64,000 nt of DNA from a phage. The stretch lies in the NCBI GenBank assembly GCA_014686985.1, contig GCA_014686985.1_3627.1. The stretch is one strand, 5' to 3'. A program made the translations under genes and the position numbers. Positions 1 to 50,158 of the stretch are shown here, one piece after another. Each line of letters opens with the position of its first letter. Positions within the stretch are counted from its first letter, which is position 1. The notes under the pieces are model-generated. The model made no database searches. It worked only from the letters and a program-made list of their open reading frames with translations, and had not been told where the DNA came from.

Positions 1-15
1 AAAAAAAAAAAATTA

Positions 16-43
16 TTGACACGCTGCAAAATTCAAGTAAACT
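16..43 (+). promoter_or_regulatory. sigma70-like early promoter
   Basis: TTGACA at 16-21, 16-nt spacer, TAAACT at 38-43; followed by 5' UTR hairpin GGCGGGAATGTTTCCCGCC (54-72). Confidence 0.5.
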
Positions 44-91
44 AGACACAAAAGGCGGGAATGTTTCCCGCCAGCACAAAGGAAAAAGATC

Positions 92-496
92 ATGAATAAG
101 AACGTACGCCGCATCATGAACGAGCTGGCAAACGATGAAAAAATTATTGACATGCATTTGATCAACATTTGCCGCCGTTGTGTAACATATAACAACCGCG
201 CCGCAAAAGCGCGTGAGATGAACGCAAAAGGTACCTTAAAGCCATTCCAGGTGGTGGTAAAGGCCATTAAAGATGTAACTAATACGGCAAACCAGGTACA
301 GGGGAACACCAACGAGAGTACCAATATTGATCCGGCTTACATCATGAAACGGATCCGGACCTGCAAGAACAAAGAGCAAGTGTATAATATCATAGACTGG
401 TTGGATTCTATGGGCGATGTGGTTTACAATAGGTTTTCTGCAGCTATCGAGATCCAGCTTGACAGGTTGGACGGTAAAGTACTGAAAACTTACTAA
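92..496 (+). CDS. hypothetical protein (134 aa)
   Basis: ORF track; ATG preceded by purine-rich leader CACAAAGGAAAAAGATC; no recognisable motif. Confidence 0.6.
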   Translation: MNKNVRRIMNELANDEKIIDMHLINICRRCVTYNNRAAKAREMNAKGTLKPFQVVVKAIKDVTNTANQVQGNTNESTNIDPAYIMKRIRTCKNKEQVYNIIDWLDSMGDVVYNRFSAAIEIQLDRLDGKVLKTY

Positions 497-497
497 G

Positions 498-543
498 TTT
501 ATTTTTAGATGGCCTTGACTTCAGGGCCATCAATAAAGTAAAC
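498..543 (+). promoter_or_regulatory. conserved 45-bp intergenic element, copy 1 (promoter with embedded dyad)
   Basis: TTTATTTTTAGATGGCCTTGACTTCAGGGCCATCAATAAAGTAAAC; near-identical copies at 1121-1166 and 4857-4903; contains TTGACT and dyad ATGGCC-N10-GGCCAT. Confidence 0.55.
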
Positions 544-578
544 TAATCTCAACTAAGCGAAAAAAAGGGGGCTTTAAG

Positions 579-698
579 ATGAGCACTACACGCCAATACA
601 CAAAGGTAACTATTATCGTTTGCGTTGTCGGTTACATCCTGGCGCAAATGTTAATGAGTAGCGCTAACAGTTTTGCAAAATTTTTCTTAAATTTTTAA
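579..698 (+). CDS. small hydrophobic peptide (39 aa)
   Basis: ATG 579, stop TAA 696-698 traced by hand; upstream AAAGGGGG RBS; hydrophobic core IIVCVVGYILAQMLM; below ORF-track size cutoff. Confidence 0.4.
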   Translation: MSTTRQYTKVTIIVCVVGYILAQMLMSSANSFAKFFLNF

Positions 699-726
699 TT
701 GACAAACTAACTTAGATCGATATACT
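699..726 (+). promoter_or_regulatory. sigma70-like early promoter
   Basis: TTGACA 699-704, 16-nt spacer, TATACT 721-726; downstream hairpin CGGGAAAACTTCCCAG. Confidence 0.55.
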
Positions 727-777
727 TAAACACGTAAACGGGAAAACTTCCCAGAGCACACAAAAGGAGAAAACACC

Positions 778-1119
778 ATGACTACTATGACCGCCGCAGA
801 AAAAGCTATGCAGATCGCCGCGCTGAAAAAACAGATCGCAGACCTTGAGAACAAGATCGATAACTTTGAAATCGACGAGGACAAGTACGACGAAAACTAT
901 GATGAATGGTTAGACGAGATCTACGGCGAAATTATGATCGGAAACATTTCTTTTCTTCCGTCGCGTATCCTCAAGGAGCTAGATCCTATCGCTTACCGCT
1001 GCGGATTTAGCGACTACATCGACAGCCTGGATATTGAGGAAGATGAAGAATACCAGGAACTACAGACAGAGTTAGAAGAAGCAAAAGAAGAGCTTGCGGA
1101 GCTGGAAGAAAACGAGTAA
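778..1119 (+). CDS. hypothetical acidic protein, coiled-coil-like (113 aa)
   Basis: ORF track; RBS AAGGAGAAAACACC before ATG; Glu/Asp-rich with heptad-like repeats. Confidence 0.6.
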   Translation: MTTMTAAEKAMQIAALKKQIADLENKIDNFEIDEDKYDENYDEWLDEIYGEIMIGNISFLPSRILKELDPIAYRCGFSDYIDSLDIEEDEEYQELQTELEEAKEELAELEENE

Positions 1120-1120
1120 G

Positions 1121-1166
1121 ATTATTTTTAGATGGCCTTGACTCCAGGGCCATCAATAAAGTAAAC
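1121..1166 (+). promoter_or_regulatory. conserved 45-bp intergenic element, copy 2
   Basis: ATTATTTTTAGATGGCCTTGACTCCAGGGCCATCAATAAAGTAAAC, starts 1 nt after the upstream stop codon. Confidence 0.55.
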
Positions 1167-1208
1167 TTTATACTGTTAACACTGAACTAATTCAGAGGAG
1201 TTAAAACC

Positions 1209-1454
1209 ATGGCAGCACTAATCACCAAATATTATGCCCCTACCAACACCAAAAGCGCCCGTGTCATGGTAAAAGGCTTCGGACGTAAAAAGGTTTACAC
1301 CTGGGATTATGCCTTAGACACGGAAGACAACTACACCAACGCGATGACCGATTTTATTAATGATCTGAACACGCGGATCTTGACAAATTATAAAATTACC
1401 GACATTGCCTATATAGGGGAAGGCGGGATCTGTTTTGTCGGTATCGTCAAATAA
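1209..1454 (+). CDS. hypothetical protein (81 aa)
   Basis: ORF track; RBS GAGGAG 7 nt upstream of ATG. Confidence 0.55.
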   Translation: MAALITKYYAPTNTKSARVMVKGFGRKKVYTWDYALDTEDNYTNAMTDFINDLNTRILTNYKITDIAYIGEGGICFVGIVK

Positions 1455-1529
1455 GCTGTTTTTTCGGTGGTCCTGGTAGCAGGGCCATCTATAAAGACAG
1501 TTTATCAACACAATGAAAGGAGAAAGTAC

Positions 1530-1883
1530 ATGATCAGCGGGGCAAGTTTTATTATTGGCGCTATTGCTACGGCTTTAATTGTAAACAAGATCCAATCTAA
1601 AAACGAAAAAGAGAGCAACGCGCTCACAGAATACCCATTTTGGGTATTCAACGACAATGAAGACTACATTATCAAGTACAAGAATGAGAAGGGCGACCAG
1701 GTAACACCGCGACCGATCCCAGCTTACAAGATGCAAGAAACACTATACCGCCTAAAGGCTGGAGGCGCAAAAATCGTAGACTTTTGGGGATATGATTGCA
1801 AGGATCAGGAGGTTATAAAGCGCCGTATCCGGGCTATTCAGGCCAATATTGAAGTTAGCGAGGGGGGAATATATGAAGATTAA
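1530..1883 (+). CDS. hypothetical membrane-anchored protein (117 aa)
   Basis: ATG 1530 preceded by AAAGGAGAAAG; N-terminal hydrophobic helix ISGASFIIGAIATALIV; track start 1467 judged too far upstream. Confidence 0.55.
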   Translation: MISGASFIIGAIATALIVNKIQSKNEKESNALTEYPFWVFNDNEDYIIKYKNEKGDQVTPRPIPAYKMQETLYRLKAGGAKIVDFWGYDCKDQEVIKRRIRAIQANIEVSEGGIYED

Positions 1884-2070
1884 TTTTGAGAAGATTGTAA
1901 AGCGATCTCATGATTCCAAAGAGCTGCCGGAACGACGCCAGCGTAACAATAAACTGAATAAGCCGAAAAGATTTGGGAAGATCTGGCGAAATCACTATGA
2001 TCGCAAATTACCCAGCCTGCTTTTGGAACGTGAACGACAAGCGGAACGATACCGCCACAAAGACAAATAG
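1873..2070 (+). CDS. small basic protein (65 aa)
   Basis: ATG 1873 after GAGGGGGG RBS, overlaps upstream stop; Arg/Lys-rich. Confidence 0.45.
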   Translation: MKINFEKIVKRSHDSKELPERRQRNNKLNKPKRFGKIWRNHYDRKLPSLLLERERQAERYRHKDK

Positions 2071-2077
2071 CAACCAA

Positions 2078-2106
2078 CGCCCCGCCATTGTGCGGGGTTT
2101 TTATTT
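2078..2106 (+). terminator. rho-independent terminator
   Basis: GC hairpin CCCCGCCATTGTGCGGGG followed by TTTTTATTT. Confidence 0.6.
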
Positions 2107-2250
2107 CTATCCTACGAATAGCGCCCATGGTTGGCCCCACAAACGCCATAAAAGCCCCTACCTATGCAATCCCCTTTCTTAACCTGAAAACAGCGTCTAG
2201 GGCCGTTTTATGGCGTTAAAAATGTTATTGACAGTAATTTTATTTAAAGC

Positions 2251-2279
2251 TTGACACCTTGGAATAGTCCGGATATACT
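2251..2279 (+). promoter_or_regulatory. sigma70-like promoter
   Basis: TTGACA 2251-2256, 17-nt spacer, TATACT 2274-2279. Confidence 0.6.
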
Positions 2280-2307
2280 GACCACATCAAAGCAAGGAGG
2301 AAACGCC

Positions 2308-2568
2308 ATGCGTAAATTGAAAAATTTTGATAAGGTAGATGTAGTACTGAATAATTTTTACTACTGCAATAATAAAGCCGTTTGGTGGCGTGATAGTTCC
2401 ACCGATAAAGTTAAGGCGCGCTTTCTCCAAGGGCACTGGCAAGGCCGTCCAGTGATTAAAATCATGGGGCAATTGGTAGCGTTTAAAAATTGCCGCCGTG
2501 TTGATGACGTTGAAGAGATTTTAAGCATTTTGCGCCACAATAATTTAAAAAATAGTGTTGACAAGTAA
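2308..2568 (+). CDS. hypothetical protein (86 aa)
   Basis: ATG 2308 preceded by CAAGGAGGAAACGCC; track start 2251 lies inside the promoter. Confidence 0.6.
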   Translation: MRKLKNFDKVDVVLNNFYYCNNKAVWWRDSSTDKVKARFLQGHWQGRPVIKIMGQLVAFKNCRRVDDVEEILSILRHNNLKNSVDK

Positions 2569-2585
2569 ATCTCGATAAGTATACT
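2558..2585 (+). promoter_or_regulatory. sigma70-like promoter
   Basis: TTGACA 2558-2563 overlapping the upstream stop, 16-nt spacer, TATACT 2580-2585; followed by hairpin GGCGGGAAAACTTCCCGCC 2596-2614. Confidence 0.6.
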
Positions 2586-2642
2586 TAAACACACAGGCGG
2601 GAAAACTTCCCGCCACTAACAAAGAAAATAGGAGAAAATATC

Positions 2643-3266
2643 ATGACCACCGTTAACATTACCACAGGTTACAATTTATCTTTCGACGTGCTGACCGATG
2701 AACAAAAAGAAAAAGCTATTGAAATGGTCCGCGAAAGAGAAGAACACAGCGGGGATAACTTTTTTGCAGAAAGTGTAATTGAAGACTATAAAGAACATAT
2801 CTTTCCAGAGTATGGCCTTGAAGATACCAAGGTACATTGGTCCGGCTTTTGGTGCCAGGGCGACGGCGCGTCAATCAGTGCGGAAAACGTGGATTTAGAA
2901 AAATTCTTGCGTAAAGTCAAGTCTCTGACTAAATTCCGCTCAATTCGTCACTTGTTCGGCACAATGCACGATGGCGAGCTATCCGCAAGTGTTGAGCGTG
3001 ATCCATATAGCCGCTATAGTCACGAAAACACTGTAAGCGGGTACATCGATACTACATGGCTAGACCTGACAGCCAAGCAAGAAAGTAAGGTTGAAGAGCT
3101 GGAAGAGCTGATCACCGAGACGGTACGGGAGCTATCCCGCAAGGTTTATGTAGACCTGGAGGAGGCCTATCTTGAACAGTTTACTACCGAAAACCTGATC
3201 GGCCTTATTGAAGCCAATGATTGGCGGTTTAATGTGGATGAATATGGGGAGATGAGTTTTTCATAA
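2643..3266 (+). CDS. hypothetical protein (207 aa)
   Basis: ORF track; RBS AGGAGAAAATATC before ATG; acidic. Confidence 0.65.
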   Translation: MTTVNITTGYNLSFDVLTDEQKEKAIEMVREREEHSGDNFFAESVIEDYKEHIFPEYGLEDTKVHWSGFWCQGDGASISAENVDLEKFLRKVKSLTKFRSIRHLFGTMHDGELSASVERDPYSRYSHENTVSGYIDTTWLDLTAKQESKVEELEELITETVRELSRKVYVDLEEAYLEQFTTENLIGLIEANDWRFNVDEYGEMSFS

Positions 3267-3355
3267 ATAAAGTGTTGCAATAATCTAAAAACCTGCTATA
3301 TTAAAACTCAAGGGGCGAGATGACTTGCCCCACACAAAACAAAGAGGAAAACATC

Positions 3356-3736
3356 ATGAAAAACACCACCAAGGCTATTGACACCGTTATGTTTAACCTG
3401 GTTACATTCCGTGAAGATATGAAAGATCTTCCACGTGAAACTGTGTGCGACCATATCGAAAACTATCGCAAACTAATCAAAGAGTTGCCTTTAAAACGTG
3501 ACCAATATGCGGCTAACGCTATGCTTAACGCCATGATCAAAAAGATGATTCAGTGTGATTTAACTCTGGCCTATGATTATGCAGGTGGTCGTTTTGCAGT
3601 ATACAATCAGCCCGTGCCTGGTATGAGCACCACCGAAGAATTGCACGCGCTCAATCTAAAACAAGATGTGTGGGATAGTATGCCCCGCGTGGTGGTATGG
3701 GTAGAAAGCGGAAAGATTTACGGCGATAATTTTTAA
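3356..3736 (+). CDS. hypothetical protein (126 aa)
   Basis: ATG 3356 after AAAGAGGAAAACATC; upstream 5' UTR hairpin GGGGCGAGATGACTTGCCCC. Confidence 0.6.
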   Translation: MKNTTKAIDTVMFNLVTFREDMKDLPRETVCDHIENYRKLIKELPLKRDQYAANAMLNAMIKKMIQCDLTLAYDYAGGRFAVYNQPVPGMSTTEELHALNLKQDVWDSMPRVVVWVESGKIYGDNF

Positions 3737-3746
3737 TCAGGTAACA

Positions 3747-3776
3747 GGCGGCGGCATATTTGCCGCCTTATTGTTA
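3747..3776 (+). terminator. rho-independent terminator
   Basis: hairpin GGCGGCGGCATATTTGCCGCC followed by TTATTGTT. Confidence 0.55.
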
Positions 3777-3803
3777 ATCAGAACTGTAAAAGAGGTACAT
3801 AGA

Positions 3804-4175
3804 ATGGAATTTATTATTTTGGCTATATTAGTTGCCTTGTTTAACGCCTGGATCGCTGGCAAGATGGGCAGATCCGCCTTTTTATGGTTTATTATATCTA
3901 TTTTCCTGGGAGTGGTTGCAACTATTGTATTGGTTATCCTTGCAATTGTTGACAAGGGGAATAATAGAAAGGGTAAAGTATTTTCAGACCTGTACGACGC
4001 TCAAACATTTGTCAACGCCTACTACAGCGATCTTCCAGTCTCCCTACGTTGCAGCCTTGCACAACAGGTTTTCGATGAAGCTAAAACCAGAGATCACGCC
4101 CATGAGATTTGTTTAACTGAGGCGGATCGCCTATTTGAGAGGAATAGAAAATATGTGGACCAGCCGTTTAAATAA
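3804..4175 (+). CDS. hypothetical membrane protein (123 aa)
   Basis: ATG 3804 after AAAGAGG; two hydrophobic helices in the N-terminal half. Confidence 0.55.
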   Translation: MEFIILAILVALFNAWIAGKMGRSAFLWFIISIFLGVVATIVLVILAIVDKGNNRKGKVFSDLYDAQTFVNAYYSDLPVSLRCSLAQQVFDEAKTRDHAHEICLTEADRLFERNRKYVDQPFK

Positions 4176-4285
4176 TGCCACGTTAATTAATCCCTTTAGT
4201 GAAGATTTGAAGCCAGCCGCCTGGCGCGATGGATTCAATAACGAAAGCTTTATTTTCAGGCCTGATCTTAAGGAATTTTATAACA

Positions 4286-4411
4286 ATGGATCGAACAACG
4301 ACAGAGATAATTTTTCTTGTAATGTGCGTGGTGATAATACTCCTGGGGGCCATTGCAAACCACGTCACTGCTAACAGGAGGGGAGGGGGAGACGATGACA
4401 ACCAAGGATAA
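4286..4411 (+). CDS. small transmembrane peptide (41 aa)
   Basis: ATG 4286; single hydrophobic helix IIFLVMCVVIILLGAIA; an alternative overlapping frame (4153-4374) exists, so the call is uncertain. Confidence 0.35.
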   Translation: MDRTTTEIIFLVMCVVIILLGAIANHVTANRRGGGDDDNQG

Positions 4412-4514
4412 GCCCCGCACCGATAAGGTGCGCCGTGTTATGGTATGGCTTGAGATCATCGCCCTTGAAATATTGTTAGGCGTAGGGATGTACTTTATCG
4501 CTGTAAGTAACTGA
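4395..4514 (+). CDS. small transmembrane peptide (39 aa)
   Basis: ATG 4395 after GGAGGGGGAG RBS, stop TGA 4512-4514 traced by hand; hydrophobic VWLEIIALEILLGVGMYFIAV. Confidence 0.4.
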   Translation: MTTKDKPRTDKVRRVMVWLEIIALEILLGVGMYFIAVSN

Positions 4515-4519
4515 TAACG

Positions 4520-4550
4520 GCCCCCAATCCCTGGGGGCTTAACTTTTTCA
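4520..4550 (+). terminator. rho-independent terminator
   Basis: hairpin GCCCCCAATCCCTGGGGGC followed by TTAACTTTTT. Confidence 0.55.
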
Positions 4551-4570
4551 AAAATTTTTCTTCCCGGGTG

Positions 4571-4600
4571 TTGCAATCCGGTCCGGAATATGGATAATAA
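4571..4600 (+). promoter_or_regulatory. sigma70-like promoter (TTGCAA / ATAATA class)
   Basis: TTGCAA 4571-4576, 17-nt spacer ending AATATGG, ATAATA 4594-4599; same architecture at 5730-5758. Confidence 0.5.
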
Positions 4601-4654
4601 CAATCAACGGGGAAACATCCCCACCAACACAAAAACCAGAAAGGAGAAACAAAA

Positions 4655-4855
4655 ATGAGCAACAATATCCGCGTTATTAACTTCAAAAAAGAAGAAAAAA
4701 TTGCCGTGCTGATTGACGGTCAAGAAATCTTCAAGGGCGACTATGAAGATCATCAAACGGCGATTAGTATCACTCGCGTGATTGGTTACCATAATTTTTA
4801 CCCCCAAGGCGCTGAGGCGGCGGTTAAACGAATCAAAGAGATTGTAGGCCTGTAA
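4655..4855 (+). CDS. hypothetical protein (66 aa)
   Basis: ORF track; RBS AAAGGAGAAAC before ATG. Confidence 0.6.
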   Translation: MSNNIRVINFKKEEKIAVLIDGQEIFKGDYEDHQTAISITRVIGYHNFYPQGAEAAVKRIKEIVGL

Positions 4856-4856
4856 A

Positions 4857-4903
4857 ATTTATTTTTAGATGGCCTTGACTCTAGGGCCATCAATAAAGTA
4901 AAT
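4857..4903 (+). promoter_or_regulatory. conserved 45-bp intergenic element, copy 3
   Basis: AATTTATTTTTAGATGGCCTTGACTCTAGGGCCATCAATAAAGTAAAT. Confidence 0.55.
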
Positions 4904-4946
4904 TTAAACCCTGTTAAAATAATCAGTGCAAAAAGGAGTAATGATC

Positions 4947-5246
4947 ATGTTTATCCAGGCTAATAATCTTTATTTCTTTGATGGTCAGATCGTAGACGGC
5001 GTGGAGGTGGAAATCACCGGGTGCCCTGGCGGTCAGGTTATGACTTTTCGGAATAATGCCTTTGATGATTCTCATATCGTTATGAGAATGGAAGTTAGTA
5101 AGCTGGATGACAAGAAAACACTTATCGACTATTCTGTGAAAGATCATCCAGACTACCACATGATCTATGGTGATTTGTGCGTTGTTGACCGTGACAAGGT
5201 GGGCGGCATTGTGATCGCTATTGTGAACGATGTTTTCTCAAACTAA
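4947..5246 (+). CDS. hypothetical protein (99 aa)
   Basis: ATG 4947, 8 nt after AAAGGAG; alternative ATG 4941 / GTG 4926 less well spaced. Confidence 0.55.
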   Translation: MFIQANNLYFFDGQIVDGVEVEITGCPGGQVMTFRNNAFDDSHIVMRMEVSKLDDKKTLIDYSVKDHPDYHMIYGDLCVVDRDKVGGIVIAIVNDVFSN

Positions 5247-5263
5247 TTTCAGCAGGTGATTTT

Positions 5264-5614
5264 ATGAAAGTAAAACTATATTACCTTAATGAGCTTAACC
5301 CCCTTGCCCAGGTCCGCGCCATAGCTAATACCTTGATTTGTGAGAAATCTGTATATTGTGTTGAGCTTAACGCCATGCGTGAACGTCTCAAAGGTGGTTA
5401 CTTTGACATCCATACTGCAATCAACGGCCTGAATATGGAATTTATACGCTTACGTAACAGCCGCTGGAATCTGGCAAGAATGGAACAAGATCCGGCCTAC
5501 CTTCGTAAGCTGGTTATTGAAAATCATCTGATGTTTAATGCCGAGGGTGATTATTACCATTTTCACCGCAGACGCTGGTACCGTGGCGGCAATACAGGCA
5601 AGAATGCAAAATAA
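5264..5614 (+). CDS. hypothetical protein (116 aa)
   Basis: ORF track; followed by GC hairpins 5615-5690. Confidence 0.55.
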   Translation: MKVKLYYLNELNPLAQVRAIANTLICEKSVYCVELNAMRERLKGGYFDIHTAINGLNMEFIRLRNSRWNLARMEQDPAYLRKLVIENHLMFNAEGDYYHFHRRRWYRGGNTGKNAK

Positions 5615-5729
5615 GGCCCCTAGCAGGGCCTGCAGCAATATAATCACATAAAGGCTATGCGGTTGCATGGCCTTTATTATTTTGGCGTTACAACGGCATA
5701 CGGGGCGCTTAAAAATTTTTAAAAAGTAC

Positions 5730-5758
5730 TTGCATCATTCCCAACAATATGGATAATA
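5730..5758 (+). promoter_or_regulatory. sigma70-like promoter (TTGCAT / ATAATA class)
   Basis: TTGCAT 5730-5735, 17-nt spacer ending AATATGG, ATAATA 5753-5758; downstream hairpin GGGGGGCGGCCCCCC. Confidence 0.5.
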
Positions 5759-5814
5759 GGACGCATCAGGGGGGCGGCCCCCAATCATTAACCGGATAGA
5801 TAGGAGTTAAAACC

Positions 5815-6099
5815 ATGGCTATTGTTACCGTTGGCGATGTAGTGGAAATGGAAGCAAAATACTTAAAAGCGGGTATGCATATCCTTCGGAACGATCAAGA
5901 AATGTTGCTGACTATGGTTGACTATAATCCTGGGCAGGATTATCCTAGCGTTGACTACTTTTTCCAGTATGTTGATGAAGAATTAAAAGAGGATGAGGCT
6001 TATTGCGGTGAGTTCTGCAACTTCTTTTGCCCGGATGAAGTTGTAAAAGTTATCTATCAACCTGGCGTACCTTTCCCGCTACACGCTATCAATAAATAA
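5815..6099 (+). CDS. hypothetical protein (94 aa)
   Basis: ORF track; RBS TAGGAG before ATG. Confidence 0.6.
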   Translation: MAIVTVGDVVEMEAKYLKAGMHILRNDQEMLLTMVDYNPGQDYPSVDYFFQYVDEELKEDEAYCGEFCNFFCPDEVVKVIYQPGVPFPLHAINK

Positions 6100-6155
6100 A
6101 CCTGGCGGGGCCGAAAAGGCCCCCCAATTATGAAAATAAAGAGAGGCAAATCATC

Positions 6156-6386
6156 ATGATGGAACAAATTAAACGCGCCGAGGCTATTAATGGCAACGTG
6201 ATCTATTTTGTCAGCAATAACGAAAAAGGCGTACCATATGCGGCGGTAATAGTACAGCCTGACGGCGATTATTGGTTTACTGTGTACGGCGCTTACTCTT
6301 TTGGGCGTCCAGTGCATGATAAAATTTTGAAAGTAGCGAACCCTACCGGGAAGAATATCACAGCAGAAAAATTTTTTGAAAAATAG
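6156..6386 (+). CDS. hypothetical protein (76 aa)
   Basis: ORF track; RBS AGAGAGG; upstream hairpin GGCGGGGCCGAAAAGGCCCCCC. Confidence 0.55.
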   Translation: MMEQIKRAEAINGNVIYFVSNNEKGVPYAAVIVQPDGDYWFTVYGAYSFGRPVHDKILKVANPTGKNITAEKFFEK

Positions 6387-6414
6387 TTGACATGGCCTTA
6401 TAAGACTGTAGAAT
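6387..6414 (+). promoter_or_regulatory. sigma70-like promoter
   Basis: TTGACA 6387-6392, 16-nt spacer, TAGAAT 6409-6414. Confidence 0.45.
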
Positions 6415-6466
6415 ATAAATCAAAGGGGGCAACAAGCCCCACCAACCACAAAGAGGATAAAAAATC

Positions 6467-6646
6467 ATGGCTATTATTGCAAAGACTGAGATCGTAGGCT
6501 TAGATTCTATTCTCCTCGCATATGAGGAAGCTATAGAAATGTATGTGGTTTCCTATGGTGAATATATCCGTGAATATAAATCTATTGATCTGGCTTTTGA
6601 ATGTTATATTCGCCAGGTTAATAAAGCGTACGATGATTATCGTTAA
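6467..6646 (+). CDS. hypothetical protein (59 aa)
   Basis: ATG 6467 after AAAGAGGATAAAAAATC, stop TAA 6644-6646 traced by hand; below ORF-track cutoff. Confidence 0.5.
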   Translation: MAIIAKTEIVGLDSILLAYEEAIEMYVVSYGEYIREYKSIDLAFECYIRQVNKAYDDYR

Positions 6647-6736
6647 AATAGCTTGACAACAAACAACCATCTAACAAAGCATAATACATAAGGCGGTGGA
6701 ATGGTCCGCCACCTGGAACAAGAAGAGGAAAACAAG

Positions 6737-6838
6737 ATGAAACAGAAATTAATTGATGCGGTGATCCTGGTTATTGCCCTGGGTATTGGCCTGATTGCAA
6801 CCATGTCTAATATGATCTTGTCTTCCAACGGTATCGGG
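6737..6838 (+). CDS. small transmembrane peptide (33 aa)
   Basis: ATG 6737 after AAGAAGAGGAAAAC; hydrophobic AVILVIALGIGLIATM; stop overlaps the RBS of the next gene. Confidence 0.45.
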
Positions 6839-6850
6839 TGAGGTTGGCAA

Positions 6851-7066
6851 ATGATCACTAACAAAACAGGCAAAACAGAATTTTTACGCAACTTACAGAT
6901 CGGCAAGCCTGAGATCTGGTATTGCACTAAAACACCACGTGACGAAATGAAAGACTTCACCGCCACGCTGCAACGGGTAAAGATATCCATCACGCAGAAA
7001 AAGGCCTTATTAGTGGTGGAAGGTGAGATCCCCCAAACCGTTGTTATAGTTGAGCGTACAGCATAG
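6851..7066 (+). CDS. hypothetical protein (71 aa)
   Basis: ORF track; RBS GGTGAGG. Confidence 0.55.
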   Translation: MITNKTGKTEFLRNLQIGKPEIWYCTKTPRDEMKDFTATLQRVKISITQKKALLVVEGEIPQTVVIVERTA

Positions 7067-7157
7067 TTTAATTTATACCGATACCCGAAAATTAACCAAC
7101 AAAGCATAAACAGGCGGTTACCGCCGCCTTAAACGTAGCAGAAAGAGGATAGACACA

Positions 7158-7442
7158 ATGAAAAAGATGATCGCAGTGGTTGCCCTGGTTGTTGGACTTA
7201 ATGCGCCTGTAATGGCTAAAGAGCTGGCAAAAGAGGTTAATCTAACGGATATTCATGCCGTCAATCAAATCGGGGTTACTTATCGCTTATGCCTTGCCGC
7301 TAAAACTTTCCAGGACGGCACGACAGAGTACTACGGATTCGAGGGTATCCGGTGCGGTGAGCTTGCTCGCGACCTTAAGGAAGATCCAGATCTGGAAGAT
7401 CTACCCATCACCGTAAACGGTAAAGCTTACGTAAACCGTTAA
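7158..7442 (+). CDS. hypothetical secreted/periplasmic protein (94 aa)
   Basis: N-terminal signal-peptide-like MKKMIAVVALVVGLNAPVMA; RBS AAAGAGGATAG. Confidence 0.6.
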   Translation: MKKMIAVVALVVGLNAPVMAKELAKEVNLTDIHAVNQIGVTYRLCLAAKTFQDGTTEYYGFEGIRCGELARDLKEDPDLEDLPITVNGKAYVNR

Positions 7443-7444
7443 CC

Positions 7445-7579
7445 ATGAGAAAGATAACCATCACCTTGGGGATTGTGGTAGCAATACTGGCGCTCTTTCC
7501 CCTTATGGTTAGGTATGTGCTGATCAGTGTTGTCCTGATAGTCAGTGATCTATTGGAAACGGTTGGCACCTTGTTTTAA
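7445..7579 (+). CDS. small membrane protein (44 aa)
   Basis: ATG 7445, 2 nt after upstream stop; two hydrophobic stretches; stop TAA 7577-7579. Confidence 0.4.
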   Translation: MRKITITLGIVVAILALFPLMVRYVLISVVLIVSDLLETVGTLF

Positions 7580-7592
7580 AGAGCGATAAAAA

Positions 7593-7784
7593 ATGAATAT
7601 CGAACAAGTTAGAAAGGTATTAGCGGTACTGCGTTATCATAATCATAGAAAGGTCATAGACGATCCTGATTATGTTGATTCAAGCCTGGAAGAGGATACA
7701 CTACAAGCCATAAGTAACATGCAAGAATTGCTAAAGCGCATGACAGAGAAAAACCGACCGGACTACATAGGCGAAAAAATATAA
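7593..7784 (+). CDS. hypothetical protein (63 aa)
   Basis: ORF track. Confidence 0.5.
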   Translation: MNIEQVRKVLAVLRYHNHRKVIDDPDYVDSSLEEDTLQAISNMQELLKRMTEKNRPDYIGEKI

Positions 7785-7801
7785 TATTTATAAACTACAA
7801 A

Positions 7802-7830
7802 ACAGGGCTTGCAATGGTCCTGTTTTTTGT
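7802..7830 (+). terminator. rho-independent terminator
   Basis: stem ACAGG/CCTGT with loop, followed by TTTTTTGTT. Confidence 0.55.
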
Positions 7831-7913
7831 TATACTTATTCCACGGCAGGCACCTGGCGACGGGGGGGAGACAATCACCGGGCCTGCCTGTCATATAAGA
7901 ACTATAAAAACCG

Positions 7914-7942
7914 TTGACATCTGCCATGGGGTGAGGTAACAT
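7914..7942 (+). promoter_or_regulatory. sigma70-like promoter
   Basis: TTGACA 7914-7919, 17-nt spacer, TAACAT 7937-7942; downstream hairpin GGGGCAAAAGTGCCC. Confidence 0.5.
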
Positions 7943-7996
7943 TTATCTTGAAGGGGCAAAAGTGCCCACACAACAACCAGGAGAGAGGAAAACACT

Positions 7997-8269
7997 ATGT
8001 CAAGCTGGATTAATCAAGAAGTCGAATCACGTTTTAATGCTATATGGGATCTCATCGAAAAAGAGGACGGAACATCAAGCCCCTACCTCAACAATTTGGA
8101 ATTCCATTTTGTGGAAGCGATGAACGCAGAACATGATCACGAAGGTGGCGCGGATGAGTTCGCTAAAGGTTATGGCTTTAACAATGCCAACGAAATGATC
8201 GAGGCGGTCGTACTCCAGGCTGAGGAAGATTATCAATTAAAAACGCTTGAATTCTGCCGCCATAAGTAA
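7997..8269 (+). CDS. hypothetical protein (90 aa)
   Basis: ORF track; RBS AGGAGAGAGGAAAAC. Confidence 0.6.
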   Translation: MSSWINQEVESRFNAIWDLIEKEDGTSSPYLNNLEFHFVEAMNAEHDHEGGADEFAKGYGFNNANEMIEAVVLQAEEDYQLKTLEFCRHK

Positions 8270-8329
8270 TAAGATAATGACACGGGCCAAAAGGCCCACT
8301 AATCAGAACCGCACAAAGAGGTAAACATC

Positions 8330-8593
8330 ATGAAACGTCTTGACCAGCTCAAACTAGTTCAGTACATGGCTTACAGAATTCTTGAAGTCCAAAAAGGTAG
8401 CAAAAAAGAAGTTTGCGAGAAAGCGTACAAGATCTTTACTCGCAAAAAAGACGATTGGATGCTACGCCAGACTAAAAAGGCTGACATCTTGGGGTACCTG
8501 GAAGAAGAGATCCGGCTTGAAGAACAAGAAGAGATCCGCCGTAGTGAGGCAGATTATCAGGCAGTTTGGGAAAACTGGATGAGCAACAAATAA
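8330..8593 (+). CDS. hypothetical protein (87 aa)
   Basis: ORF track; RBS AAAGAGG; upstream hairpin GGGCCAAAAGGCCC. Confidence 0.6.
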   Translation: MKRLDQLKLVQYMAYRILEVQKGSKKEVCEKAYKIFTRKKDDWMLRQTKKADILGYLEEEIRLEEQEEIRRSEADYQAVWENWMSNK

Positions 8594-8659
8594 TACAACA
8601 AGTTACATGGTCAGGGGCAATAAAGCCCCTTGATCACATAAAAATTATGCTATCCCTTG

Positions 8660-8688
8660 TTGACAGGGATCGGCAGTTTTGCTATATT
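8660..8688 (+). promoter_or_regulatory. sigma70-like promoter
   Basis: TTGACA 8660-8665, 17-nt spacer, TATATT 8683-8688. Confidence 0.55.
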
Positions 8689-8737
8689 CTTTTTTGAAGG
8701 GAAGTTGTAAGAAAATTAACTAAGAGGTAAAAACACC

Positions 8738-9157
8738 ATGAACATTAAATCTGATAATCCGGCATATAGCTTTGATAACGCTTTTTGTCACGGTCCGGCG
8801 GCGAAAGGATTCGAAATCGATGGTAAACTAGTTATTGTTAATGTTGACGGGGAAGAGGTTGCAGTATATCCGGTGGCAGACGTTAAAAGCCGTCTACAAT
8901 GCCGCATGGATGTTACCGCCTATCAGCTTGATCCGGTCCGGGTAGTTGCCCTGGTCCTGGAAGAAGAAATTAAAGCAATGCACCACAGCAACAAGTTTAT
9001 TGGTGACGCTCAAGATAATATGCAGGTATGCCGCTATAAAGTTAATGAAGTGCTTAAAGAGTACGGCTATAAGGATTTAATGATCAAGCGTGATGAAAAA
9101 TTCCGCTACCGTAACGACCTGGCAAATCGGATTTTTGAAATATACGAATCATTATAA
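8738..9157 (+). CDS. hypothetical protein (139 aa)
   Basis: ORF track; RBS TAAGAGG. Confidence 0.6.
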   Translation: MNIKSDNPAYSFDNAFCHGPAAKGFEIDGKLVIVNVDGEEVAVYPVADVKSRLQCRMDVTAYQLDPVRVVALVLEEEIKAMHHSNKFIGDAQDNMQVCRYKVNEVLKEYGYKDLMIKRDEKFRYRNDLANRIFEIYESL

Positions 9158-9177
9158 TTTCTTAACTGAATTATCAA

Positions 9178-9202
9178 GGGGCTTAAAGGCCCCTTTCTTT
9201 TT
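9178..9202 (+). terminator. rho-independent terminator at the end of the plus-strand early block
   Basis: hairpin GGGGCTTAAAGGCCCC followed by TTTCTTTTT. Confidence 0.6.
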
Positions 9203-11760
9203 GTCTGCTCTTCTCCTACCATAAACGGCCCTACCCGGCAAGTGGAATAATTGACTAGCCATTAATCCCACACACTGTACAAATATACATATAAAATAAC
9301 TATTGCATAATCTTTCACTGTGTGGTAGCAGGGCCATTTTTACCCGTTTTCTCTCCCAAAAGTGCACGTAATGCCGCTATTGCACAAATTTTAACCTGAT
9401 GCACATCTCCAATATCTTGTCAACAACTAAAAATCTTTATAAGTCATACACTTACACAACATAGAAAGCGTGTCCTACGCGAAAAATCGAGTATAACTAT
9501 GGCCGCCAGATCTCAGAATTCACGTACGCACGCCATTCTATAGCCTGCAAAGTATTTATTCCAACCACAGAATAACGGAATAGTCAATACCTGCATAAAA
9601 TAATTATTCGTGTAAACTGCATAACATAAATCAGCTCAGGTGTCAACATTTTTCGTAAACAGTCCGAAATTATCACGATGAGTTATCATAAACAGAGAAA
9701 TCTTTAGTCGTCTAATGTTTACTGTACATTACTATACTGACTGGAATCATTAGATGACTAAGAGAAAGATAAGAAATAATTAATAATGTGATTATTTTAC
9801 CTGTAACAATAAGGCAACTATGCAAACGAATGGCATGGCGCGACGGAGTCGCGACATAATATAAAAGCAGTAACCATCACCCCCGTGATAGTTTGTCTGC
9901 AAACTATTAATCAGATCATAGTTGCCTTGTATTTAGTTAATCATGACATAACAAGCAAGGCAACTATAGATCTTCTAATAGTTGCCCTGCTTTTATATTA
10001 TGTCATAGAAACACCCGAAGGGGTGACCAAAGGCCACCTGGCATAGCCAGCGAAAGATTATTAACTTGCTAATAGTTATCATGCAAACGAATGGCATGGC
10101 TTATCATTTCCATGTAAATAGTTAGCTATGTAAACTATTGGTCATGTAAACCATTAAGCATGTAAACAGTAAGAGCGTGAACAGTAAAGGGAGTGAATAG
10201 TAATAGCGTGAATAGTGACAGCGTAAACAGTCAGGCATGTCAATTATGTCATATTGTGTCACCATTATGTCTAAAGTGTCATATTGTGTCAGACAAGTTT
10301 TTCTCCTCTTTGTCAAGTGCTGCATGAAAAATTTACAAGCTGGTATGGTAGCATTTTTGCGGCCCTGTTTACATTCAGTGATGTATGTATAATCCTTGTT
10401 GTGTGGGCGTTTAGACGTCTAGACGGTTGGAAGTCCACAGGTCAATATCTAATCTATCGGCTGCTAACTATATCCCACACAAATAGTAAGAAATATGATT
10501 GTTATATGCGTAAACAGTAACTCATGTTATCAATCCCTGTATGTATCGCCAGTGGTGCGCATAATGGGTATTATGTTAAATTGCCCGTAATGATAATGGT
10601 TCTCACAATGATAGGTATTCTCATTCCCCCACACAAAATAGATTGCAAATGTTGTGCCACTATGTGAACGGCCTCACCTATTAATTTGCCTCACTGCCTC
10701 GATATTTGAGAATTGTTATAAGAATGAGAATGATTCCCATTTCGTCCGCCTGGCAGCACTCCTGTAGGTCCTGCAAGGACTCTAGCTGAAAGCTAGACCC
10801 TTCGGGCCTCCCTGTAGGTCAGGTCAAAATCGTGGTAGAATTGGGCCTGTTCAGATATTTCTGGCTGACTCTTCAGGTCTGTGTGGGAAAAGCCAACCTC
10901 TCCGGCGGCGGGGAGGGGGTCAATTAAAAAAAAAATTACGTGGTGTATGAAGCGCTCTTCAGGTAAGGCATATATTATGAGATGAAACCCTCTTCAGGTA
11001 ATGATATTTGTGGGTGTGATATTTGCTGGAAAGCCAGATATGACGGGACTCCCGGCGGGGCAGGGGTAGTACAGACAGGGAAAATATGAGAATGTAGTTG
11101 GGGAAATTGATCAGACAGGTAGAGTATGGAATATGTTACAAGTATGTTAAATATGGAGGTTGAATATCTGTAGGGTTTGTGTGTAAAATCAAAGACTTAA
11201 GGGGTGTTGTGGTATTTTCTATAAATAATTCAAGTTTAATAGGCAATATTTGTCTCTATCCGCTTTGTGTGGTAAACAGATTCAGATTAGATTGGTTTAC
11301 AAGTGTATACATAATATACAAATTAAAGATACAAGAAACCCCCCTCCCCCTTCGGCTACCATTCACCTTTTCCTCTGACTGGTACTTAAACACTTATTCA
11401 GACTCTTCAGGTTATCACCCATATATCATATGGCAGTGACTGGTGTCCTCCGGCCCCTCTTTCGTCACCCGTCCGCTTCGCCATGCTAATGCCATAGCCA
11501 ATGGTTCGGTTGTTCACCCTGTTCACTCAGGTGTATCTCCATACCCCTTCAAACCGAAGAGAACAGAAAACCCGAATTACTCGGTAAAAGAAAAGAGAAG
11601 AACTTAATTTTATCAGGATAGGCAAGAATGTCAAGGCATGACTGCTCACTAAACAAGCAAACAGTCATGTGTGGGAGGTAAGTGATTGTGGTGGTAGGAA
11701 ATTTAGTTGAAAGATGTGTTATAGGTGCTTCCAGCACTTTAGCCTGGCAGCTAATTGTGT
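9203..11760. repeat. non-coding repeat-dense region (several families of short direct and inverted repeats)
   Basis: no convincing ORF on either strand; recurring motifs AGGCAACTAT / ATAGTTGCC, CAAACGAATGGCATGGC (x2), TGTCATATTGTGTCA (x2), CATGTAAA and GTGAATAGT series, CTCTTCAGGT (x4), CCTGTAGGTC (x2). Confidence 0.6.
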
Positions 11761-50000: not shown

Positions 50001-50072
50001 ACCAGTAAAAACTTAAATATCTGTACTATAAGGATTCGTATGTTTTATGTTCGCTCTGGAACAGAGGTCAGT

Positions 50073-50158
50073 AACTGTCCGTGATACGGACACTACTGTC
50101 CGTCACGCGGACACATCTGCCCGTAATACGGACACTAACTGTCCGTGATACGGACACA
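50073..50158. repeat. four tandem 21-22-bp iterons, each containing dyad GTCCGT-N3-ACGGAC
   Basis: AACTGTCCGTGATACGGACACT (50073), ACTGTCCGTCACGCGGACACAT (50095), ATCTGCCCGTAATACGGACACT (50117), AACTGTCCGTGATACGGACACA (50137). Confidence 0.8.

Follow-up and report, generated by a model that had tools for sequence, protein, structure and literature searches.

We analysed a 64,000-nucleotide (nt) stretch of phage DNA (GenBank assembly GCA_014686985.1, contig GCA_014686985.1_3627.1; hereafter the window) and studied a 52-nt intergenic element that recurs four times among its early genes and whose + strand RNA is predicted to fold into a bipartite hairpin. Judged by comparison among related genomes, selection is shown to act on this + strand RNA fold, and we assign a probability of about one half to reading the element as a composite signal that marks the boundaries of small early-gene cassettes, analogous to the promoter-early stem-loop (PeSL) cassettes of T4-like phages. 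The window derives from an rV5-like coliphage (Vequintavirus): its first 6 kb match about 120 rV5-like coliphages at 90-99.8% identity, the closest match being MG065655 (99.8% identical; complete genome, 140,158 bp), and its early genes lie on the + strand from position 1 to about 9200.

Copies of the element

A preliminary description of this DNA had reported three near-identical copies of a promoter with an embedded dyad, and we recovered all three: the 22-nt core ATGGCCTTGACTYYAGGGCCAT occurs exactly at 509-530, 1132-1153 and 4869-4890, always on the + strand (0 expected, from 100 shuffles), and a repeat search returned a 51-nt family at 494-544, 1117-1167 and 4854-4904 together with a fourth, 69%-identical copy at 1452-1502. 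The position relative to the genes was likewise as described, with upstream stop codons at 494-496, 1117-1119 and 4853-4855 and following start codons at 579, 1209 and 4947, and so was the order TTGACT, 18 nt, TAAACT or TAAATT (515-544, 1138-1167 and 4875-4904). We refer to these three as A-type copies and to the fourth, which lacks TTGACT and has its upstream stop codon at 1452-1454, as the B-type copy; across copies the next start codon lies 26-44 nt past the element. The copies and their parts are as follows (dG, fold energy in kcal/mol; bits, covariance-model score).

494..545, + strand: A-type copy 1; dG -25, z -6.05; 78.1 bits
494-496, + strand: upstream stop codon of copy 1
496-505/535-544, + strand: lower stem of copy 1
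506-507 / 532-534, + strand: internal loop of copy 1
508-517/522-531, + strand: upper stem of copy 1, with its loop at 518-521
515-520 and 539-544, + strand: candidate -35 TTGACT and candidate -10 TAAACT of copy 1
1117..1168, + strand: A-type copy 2, architecture as in copy 1; candidate -35 at 1138-1143, candidate -10 at 1162-1167; dG -21.1, z -5.05; 77 bits
1452..1503, + strand: B-type copy, hairpin only, no -35; upper stem GGUGGUCCUG/CAGGGCCAUC with two G.U pairs, loop GUAG, 12-bp lower stem; dG -28.9, z -6.57; 70 bits
4854..4905, + strand: A-type copy 3; candidate -35 at 4875-4880, candidate -10 TAAATT at 4899-4904; dG -21.5, z -5.36; 75.2 bits

Two degenerate relatives had also been proposed. 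The one at about 1455-1500 on the + strand is a true member of the family, namely the B-type copy; the one at 9320-9345 is a 15-nt match only, and we rejected it as a member, since it gave no covariance-model match at E<=10 and its fold is unlike that of the element. It may be a remnant of an old recombination event.

9323..9337, + strand: 15-nt relic TGGTAGCAGGGCCAT, identical to the B-type core at 1474-1488, within the long non-coding DNA beyond the last terminator of the early region (9176-9195)

The view of the copies as a co-regulated promoter class overstates what are three clustered copies, and the element is not a genome-wide class, because MG065655 (140 kb) holds only four. There, a profile hidden Markov model, a fuzzy search and a covariance model each found the same four copies and no others, all within 4.4 kb, and a descriptor scan of the 140 kb placed the hairpin architecture at essentially these four sites only. 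Among about 120 records, genomes carry 2 to 4 copies each. A blastn search of the element against 50,697 phage records gave matches limited to Vequintavirus and the phage KKE7M, and among the 56 loci of a pattern scan of IMG/VR only two were rV5-like contigs, the remainder being chance single matches. The covariance model, run with filters off on the 24.6 kb early region of TH18 (another genus of Vequintavirinae), found no member, and Rfam (E-value mode, positions 1-10000) gave nothing near a gathering score, the best overlap being the rhtB small RNA (23.4 bits against a gathering score of 55; E 2.4). The GenBank record of rV5 has no annotation at the element.

The hairpin and its conservation

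As + strand RNA, all four copies fold alike over their full 52 nt, beginning with the upstream stop codon. The lower stem is A/U-rich and 10-12 bp long, the upstream T tract pairing with AAAGTAAACT, the '-10' of the earlier reading. An asymmetric internal loop with 2 nt in the 5' arm and 3 nt in the 3' arm comes next, followed by a G/C upper stem of 10 bp, which is the dyad noted earlier, lengthened by U.G, U-A and G-C pairs and capped by a tetraloop. Fold energies of the four copies on the + strand range from -21 to -29 kcal/mol (z -5 to -6.6) and the minus strand folds much worse (z -1.2 to -2.7); RNAalifold predicted the same structure independently. In the B-type copy the fold is retained by means of two G.U pairs in the upper stem and new pairings in the lower one, and in copy 3 a G-C pair of the lower stem is swapped for A-U.

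We compared 39 instances from 12 Vequintavirus genomes (25 distinct copies) and, after adding metagenome contigs, 55 instances (37 distinct copies). Standard pairs filled 97.3% of the pair cells in the 25 distinct copies and 96.8% in the 37, against 36-57% and 37-56% when the 3' partners were slid by 1-3 columns. Pairs altered on both sides numbered four in the smaller set and six in the larger, a count of six being reached by 6/500 shuffles. There were 100 G.U cells but only 9 A.C cells, and the pairing constraint therefore lies on the + strand only, that is, on an RNA and not on a DNA palindrome. The upper helix varies through wobble pairs only, and one pair of the lower stem forms a G-C, G.U, A-U series in different phages. 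Purifying selection is indicated by a pairwise diversity of 0.04-0.05 among A-type and 0.09 among B-type copies, compared with 0.13-0.16 for third codon positions in the flanking genes; the elements evolve about three times more slowly than these positions. The bases UUUU...AU-AAAG around the internal loop are invariant in all copies. In phage Alma (L067 6047-6100) and at L111 3762-3814 we observed single-base insertions in the upper stem, in Alma one per arm, which could be homopolymer sequencing errors or genuine paired indels.

A divergent relative, the 137-kb metagenome contig OLOT01000016, carries four elements. Two are without any TTGAC, one has TTGACA in an enlarged loop, a 17-nt spacer and TAAACT, and the variant L110:4740, whose upper stem is unrelated (AAGCCCCCU/GGGGGGCUU), carries TTGACA in the loop and, at a distance of 17 nt, TATGAT. 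Despite the replaced upper-stem sequence, the UC/UAU internal loop and the lower stem of L110:4740 are unchanged. Across this contig the geometry is constant, the stem sequence is free and the promoter hexamers occur in a subset, which, in predicted structure, shows two separable modules.

Correspondence to RNase III processing signals

In RNase III substrates two helical turns are the primary reactivity epitope, and internal loops confine cleavage to one strand, the remaining 3' hairpin protecting against exonucleases; the site is defined by two boxes of an 11-bp helix, one distal (U-A, U.G) and one proximal (G-C, A-U/U-A, A-U, A-U/U-A), where G-C/C-G at proximal positions 2 and 4 is inhibitory (Pertzev & Nicholson 2006, PMC1540722). 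The box numbering was checked against the T7 R1.1 sequence, and the T7 early RNase III sites, folded here, have a G/C upper stem of 9-13 bp with G.U pairs, a small loop and then UAU. The element has about two helical turns (10-12 bp plus 10 bp, coaxial across the 2/3 internal loop), and the arrangement for cleavage of one strand is present as a 10-bp upper stem, an A.A (or C.U) mismatch at proximal position 4 and a 3-nt loop on the 3' side with invariant A40 and U41. The boxes compare as follows.

Distal box: U23-A30 and U22.G31 in A-type (canonical, all A-type copies); U-A then C-G in B-type, as in the folded T7 R0.5; not canonical in L110:4740
Proximal position 1: U-A in A-type and B-type (suboptimal); canonical G-C in L110:4740
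Proximal position 2: A-U in A-type (fits); G.U in B-type; canonical A-U in L110:4740
Proximal position 3: G-C in A-type and B-type (suboptimal); canonical A-U in L110:4740
Proximal position 4: mismatch in A-type, as in native R1.1; mismatch in B-type
3' side of the internal loop: AAU in A-type; UAU in B-type; UAU in L110:4740 (AAG...CUU UAU), T7-like

The A-type proximal box has no antideterminant at positions 2 or 4. From this likeness to characterised substrates the hairpin may well be an RNase III processing site, a proposal for which we see nearly even odds; that it has some generic insulating or stabilising role is probable.

Candidate promoters in the A-type copies

The promoter part of the preliminary description holds up as plausible for the three A-type copies and fails for the B-type copy, which has no plausible -35. 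TTGAC is present in 25/27 distinct A-type copies with its A and C falling in the loop, and the two loop bases after it vary freely (T/A/G and T/C); an invariant TTGAC beside variable loop bases is the pattern of a -35 hexamer. The divergent relative has better hexamers, TTGACA-17-TAAACT and TTGACA-17-TATGAT. A natural recombinant, the phage KKE7M described below, also favours a promoter here. On balance we lean towards the A-type copies functioning as promoters.

Sigma-70 promoters P194, P192, P186 and P185 have been predicted across the corresponding stretch in the rV5 genome paper. Two of them precede copies of the element in the window.

16..43, + strand: canonical early promoter, rV5 P194, TTGACA-16-TAAACT (promoter scan, rV5 genome paper)
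699..726, + strand: canonical early promoter, rV5 P192, TTGACA-16-TATACT (promoter scan, rV5 genome paper)

P194 has the -10 hexamer TAAACT in common with the candidate A-type promoter. A terminator scan downstream of 16-43 and 699-726 found no terminator-like site before 2079; as the sequence stands, P194 should read through copy 1, and P192 through copy 2 and the B-type copy.

Loss, gain and transfer of cassettes

Copies 1 and 2 border a cassette that some relatives lack, and part of it is found in a phage of another subfamily.

546..1116, + strand: cassette between copies 1 and 2 (rV5 ORF193, promoter P192, ORF192; ORF, open reading frame)
698..1171, + strand: segment also in KKE7M (474 bp, 94.7% identical; PQ356295 8582-9055), which begins at the P192 -35, includes ORF192 and ends with element copy 2

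The 570-bp cassette at 546-1116 is missing in the phages ECP26 and magaca and in the IMG/VR contig L029, where one hybrid element is left, with its left flank from copy 1 and its right flank from copy 2. KKE7M is a phi92-like phage (Justusliebigvirus) of a subfamily other than that of the window phage, and its insert lies inside a resident promoter at a site that is a hotspot: the KKE7M relative muut has no insert and shows there a canonical early promoter (TTGACA-16-TAAACT), then a G/C hairpin of the 5' untranslated region (5'-UTR), a ribosome-binding site and the start codon, and UAB_1 has a different ORF at the same site, then TTGCAA-16-(AATAAAG)TAAACT. In KKE7M the resident -35 and spacer are now joined to the -10 of P192, and at the other end the element's AATAAAGTAAATT occupies the columns of the resident -10 region AGTAAACT, directly upstream of the resident 5'-UTR hairpin, its AAAGTAAAT T aligning column for column with the resident AGTAAACT. 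Because of this alignment of KKE7M, muut and UAB_1, the '-10' of the element is homologous to the -10 region of ordinary early promoters, and the gene downstream of the insert in KKE7M presumably relies on the element for its -35. These comparisons of aligned genomes show that the repeated sequence, together with its resemblance to canonical early promoters, acts as a site of recombination.

Proposed role and alternative explanations

We propose that + strand transcripts reading through from upstream would fold the 52-nt element into the bipartite hairpin, and that this would act as an RNase III-type processing and 3'-end-stabilising signal of the kind found in T7 early mRNA. By analogy, a single cut is predicted in the 3' arm of the internal loop (..CAUC AAU, then AAAG) after U41, which lies at 534, 1157, 1492 and 4894 in the four copies; the upstream cistron would then end in a protective 3' hairpin and be uncoupled from the next cassette. 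In the A-type copies only, the same DNA would hold a modest sigma-70 promoter, with TTGACT straddling the upper stem and loop and the -10, TAAACT/TAAATT, making up the 3' half of the lower stem; from this promoter, transcription would start afresh into the next cassette, and the B-type copy would be a hairpin only. Transcript starts and 3' ends are thus both expected at the element and are not mutually exclusive. The copies would in addition be recombination sites, with cassettes deleted between copies and one moved to another phage subfamily. More speculatively, and with a good deal of doubt, the element might be a portable 'expression insulator', in which a processing signal for RNase III (or a phage factor) is fused to a restart promoter in one 52-nt module, so that a single unit could end the upstream message, start the next and supply homology for cassette exchange between the unrelated myovirus subfamilies Vequintavirinae and Stephanstirmvirinae.

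Several observations weigh against this proposal. Pairing is imperfect at the foot of the lower stem, where some copies leave 2/52, 4/50 and 5/49 unpaired, and the upstream stop codon lies inside the stem, where terminating ribosomes will melt the hairpin transiently. Most covariation events split A-type from B-type, the sequences are closely related, the independent events number roughly six to eight, and the alignment (A2) was fitted to the model. For RNase III, proximal positions 1 and 3 (U-A, G-C) are off optimum in both types, and B-type has C-G at position 2 of the distal box and G.U at position 2 of the proximal box. The candidate promoter is a 9/12 hexamer match with an 18-nt spacer, which is at background level (38 sites against 23.9 expected), and the rV5 genome paper, with its 33 promoters and 20 terminators, gives neither kind at the element, the promoter omission counting here. 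In the literature we found no Vequintavirus transcriptome, cleavage or reporter data.

One alternative is a passive mRNA stabiliser, in which the hairpin, without RNase III, would be a barrier to 3'-5' exonucleases after cleavage elsewhere (e.g., by RNase E in the A/U-rich spacer) and would set the relative stability of upstream cistrons, as the malE-malF intercistronic hairpin does. The element is intercistronic, begins at the stop codon and has a stable stem, and a very similar hairpin follows the binding-protein gene in a marine bacterial ABC-transporter operon; yet the conserved asymmetric 2/3 internal loop with its invariant AU, its fixed place just below 9-10 bp of upper stem and the match to the RNase III distal or proximal boxes would all be left unexplained, and we regard this reading as unlikely. 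A hairpin that stops or lowers readthrough from the upstream cassette, as proposed for PeSL stem-loops, is less probable still. One PeSL stem-loop cut lacZ expression as strongly as rrnB T1 (PMC2839356), and ordinary terminators stand at other cassette boundaries in the window, but after the stems of the element there is no U tract, with AAUAAAG and AAUCUCAAC in its place, the base of the helix is A/U-rich, the terminator scan makes no call at the element sites, and termination at the B-type copy would silence the genes beyond it, which lack their own promoter. An intrinsic terminator was rejected for either strand, as neither stem is followed by a U tract and the scan is silent; it had been noted before that the T tract lies upstream of the hairpin, which speaks against a classical intrinsic terminator, and this agrees with the stems preceding AAUAAAG and AAUCUC. 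The invariant UUUU...AU-AAAG exceeds the need of a generic helix and would suit a phage-encoded RNA-binding protein, a regulator of translation or stability that reads the internal loop and the flanking U4/AAAG; such a protein, however, has no candidate among the neighbouring ORFs, which are without recognisable domains, there are four sites per genome only, and we hold this to be quite improbable.

The preliminary description had placed the -35 of a sigma-70 promoter class inside a DNA operator, ATGGCC-N10-GGCCAT, bound by a dimeric regulator of phage or host. Phage promoters under repressor control often have inverted repeats over the -35, and the three A-type copies do have a perfect inverted repeat of 6-7 bp around TTGACT. 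The dyad, however, is the upper stem of a 21-23 bp hairpin: pairing runs 10-12 bp past it, through the T tract and the '-10' and across the conserved internal loop. Its arms vary by G.U or compensatory changes valid in the + strand RNA only, as the excess of G.U over A.C cells indicates, so the half-sites diverge by G.T-type changes on one strand where an operator would keep both. In B-type copies two changes break the palindrome and the -35 is absent, yet these copies are conserved and show compensatory changes, and L110:4740 keeps TTGACA and the geometry on a wholly different stem sequence; a dimeric binder would not tolerate this replacement, which therefore rules out a sequence-specific DNA operator. 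Pfam and PHROGs searches of seven flanking ORFs, moreover, found no DNA-binding domain, nor any regulator, nuclease or RNA-binding domain, and the operator is accordingly very improbable in our estimate. A cruciform or DNA-hairpin promoter of the N4 kind was set aside, since the bottom strand would have at least 2 A.C mismatches per copy. We give hardly any credence to a functionless recombination scar or selfish repeat: the copies border indels and those of one genome tend to have common loop variants, suggesting gene conversion, but diversity is about three-fold below that of synonymous-like sites and compensatory substitutions maintain the pairing.

Among therapeutic and biocontrol candidates against E. 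coli, rV5-like phages are in wide use; small genes of unknown nature follow one another through their early regions. Should the element be a composite boundary signal, its copies would define the expression units of the early region and would explain how small early genes come and go between genomes that are otherwise 93-99% identical. The PeSL idea of gene shuffling by regulatory cassettes would then reach beyond T4-like phages, with KKE7M as one supporting case, and a promoter combined with an RNA processing site would offer phage engineers a compact natural part. In annotation, an inverted repeat that covers a -35 should not be taken for an operator as a matter of course.

Other features of the window

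A second repeated module consists of a canonical early promoter, a G/C hairpin about 10 nt past the -10 (GGCGGGAA..TTCCCGCC and relatives) and a ribosome-binding site. It is itself PeSL-like, and phi92-like phages show the same layout.

44-72, 727-755, 2586-2614 and 4600-4628: promoter-plus-5'-UTR-hairpin module; a repeat family also covers 699-752 and 2558-2611

Positions 2643-3266 encode an early protein of 207 amino acids whose homologues, 42-63% identical, occur in jumbo phages such as PBECO4 and RaK2 and in another genus of Vequintavirinae, one homologue record being named 'putative YeeU-like antitoxin'. Three direct repeats of about 28 nt (GGTCAGTAACTGTCCGTGATACGGACAC) lie at 50066-50157 with spacings of 42 and 22 nt. 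Between 17 and 22 GenBank records titled 'Campylobacter phage' (UNVERIFIED, unannotated; MG065655, MG065659, MG065644 and others) are 93-99.8% identical to E. coli Vequintavirus or Justusliebigvirus genomes, and from this identity the host label of MG065655 and similar records looks doubtful.

Comparison with known systems

The closest known systems are the PeSL cassettes of the T4-like phages RB49/phi1, T4/PST and KVP40/nt-1 (Arbiol et al. 2010, PMC2839356; Comeau et al. 2014, PMC4122927). Both PeSLs and the element are intergenic, begin at the upstream stop codon within A/T-rich DNA and are followed by a Shine-Dalgarno sequence and start codon; both have a stem-loop containing G.T pairs, combined with a sigma-70-type -35/-10 that is a candidate only in the element and either box of which the stem-loop may overlap in PeSLs; both are clustered among ORFans of an early hyperplastic region; and in both, an ORF is lost or gained by recombination between copies, a chimeric element being left behind. 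The element differs in that it belongs to another phage lineage, with no sequence similarity to the RB49/phi1 PeSLs detected by blastn, and in its weak promoter match (9/12, spacer 18), whereas the RB49/phi1 PeSLs are consensus-like. It has a two-part helix of 21-23 bp over both hexamers with a conserved internal loop where a PeSL has a short G/C hairpin, and it occurs in few copies per genome, some of them hairpin only. In its structural and evolutionary characters the element would thus qualify as a PeSL, its promoter being weak and a candidate only; it differs in its RNase III-like geometry, its promoter-less copies and its two-part helix across both hexamers.

The early RNase III signals of T7 (R0.3, R0.5, R1, R1.1 and R1.3) are likewise intercistronic hairpins in early transcripts of the host polymerase, with a G/C upper stem of about 10 bp containing G.U, a small loop, an asymmetric internal loop and an A/U-rich lower stem, about two turns in all. 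The A-type copies have in common with them the UA/UG distal box in the right register and (A/U)AU on the 3' side of the internal loop. T7 sites are cut after CCUUUAU, before a G, a position that agrees with the numbering in the RNase III substrate paper, and they too occupy intergenic spacers together with promoters. Unlike the T7 signals, to which it is not homologous, the element has non-canonical proximal positions 1 and 3, a much more regular lower stem and a candidate promoter inside the hairpin, not beside it, and its cleavage is a prediction only.

Stabilisers of the malE-malF type resemble the element as stable hairpins right after a stop codon within an operon. In about 33 marine metagenome contigs (e.g., L084 1460-1492) we observed AGATGGCCACC-N6-GGTGGCCATCT between ABC-transporter binding-protein and permease genes; the hairpin, TTTAGATGGCCACC-N6-GGTGGCCATCTATAA, directly follows the stop codon of the substrate-binding protein gene, with a varying loop and a constant stem. 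We rejected these matches as a second family, for they represent one orthologous bacterial operon locus, and their sequence likeness to the phage element is most likely coincidental; in contrast to the element they are simple hairpins without bipartite geometry or promoter hexamers. Lambdoid morons, units of promoter, gene and terminator, resemble the element cassettes as autonomous expression units gained and lost by phage genomes, but they are not bordered by repeats that mediate their movement, whereas here the junctions lie inside the promoter/hairpin sequence.

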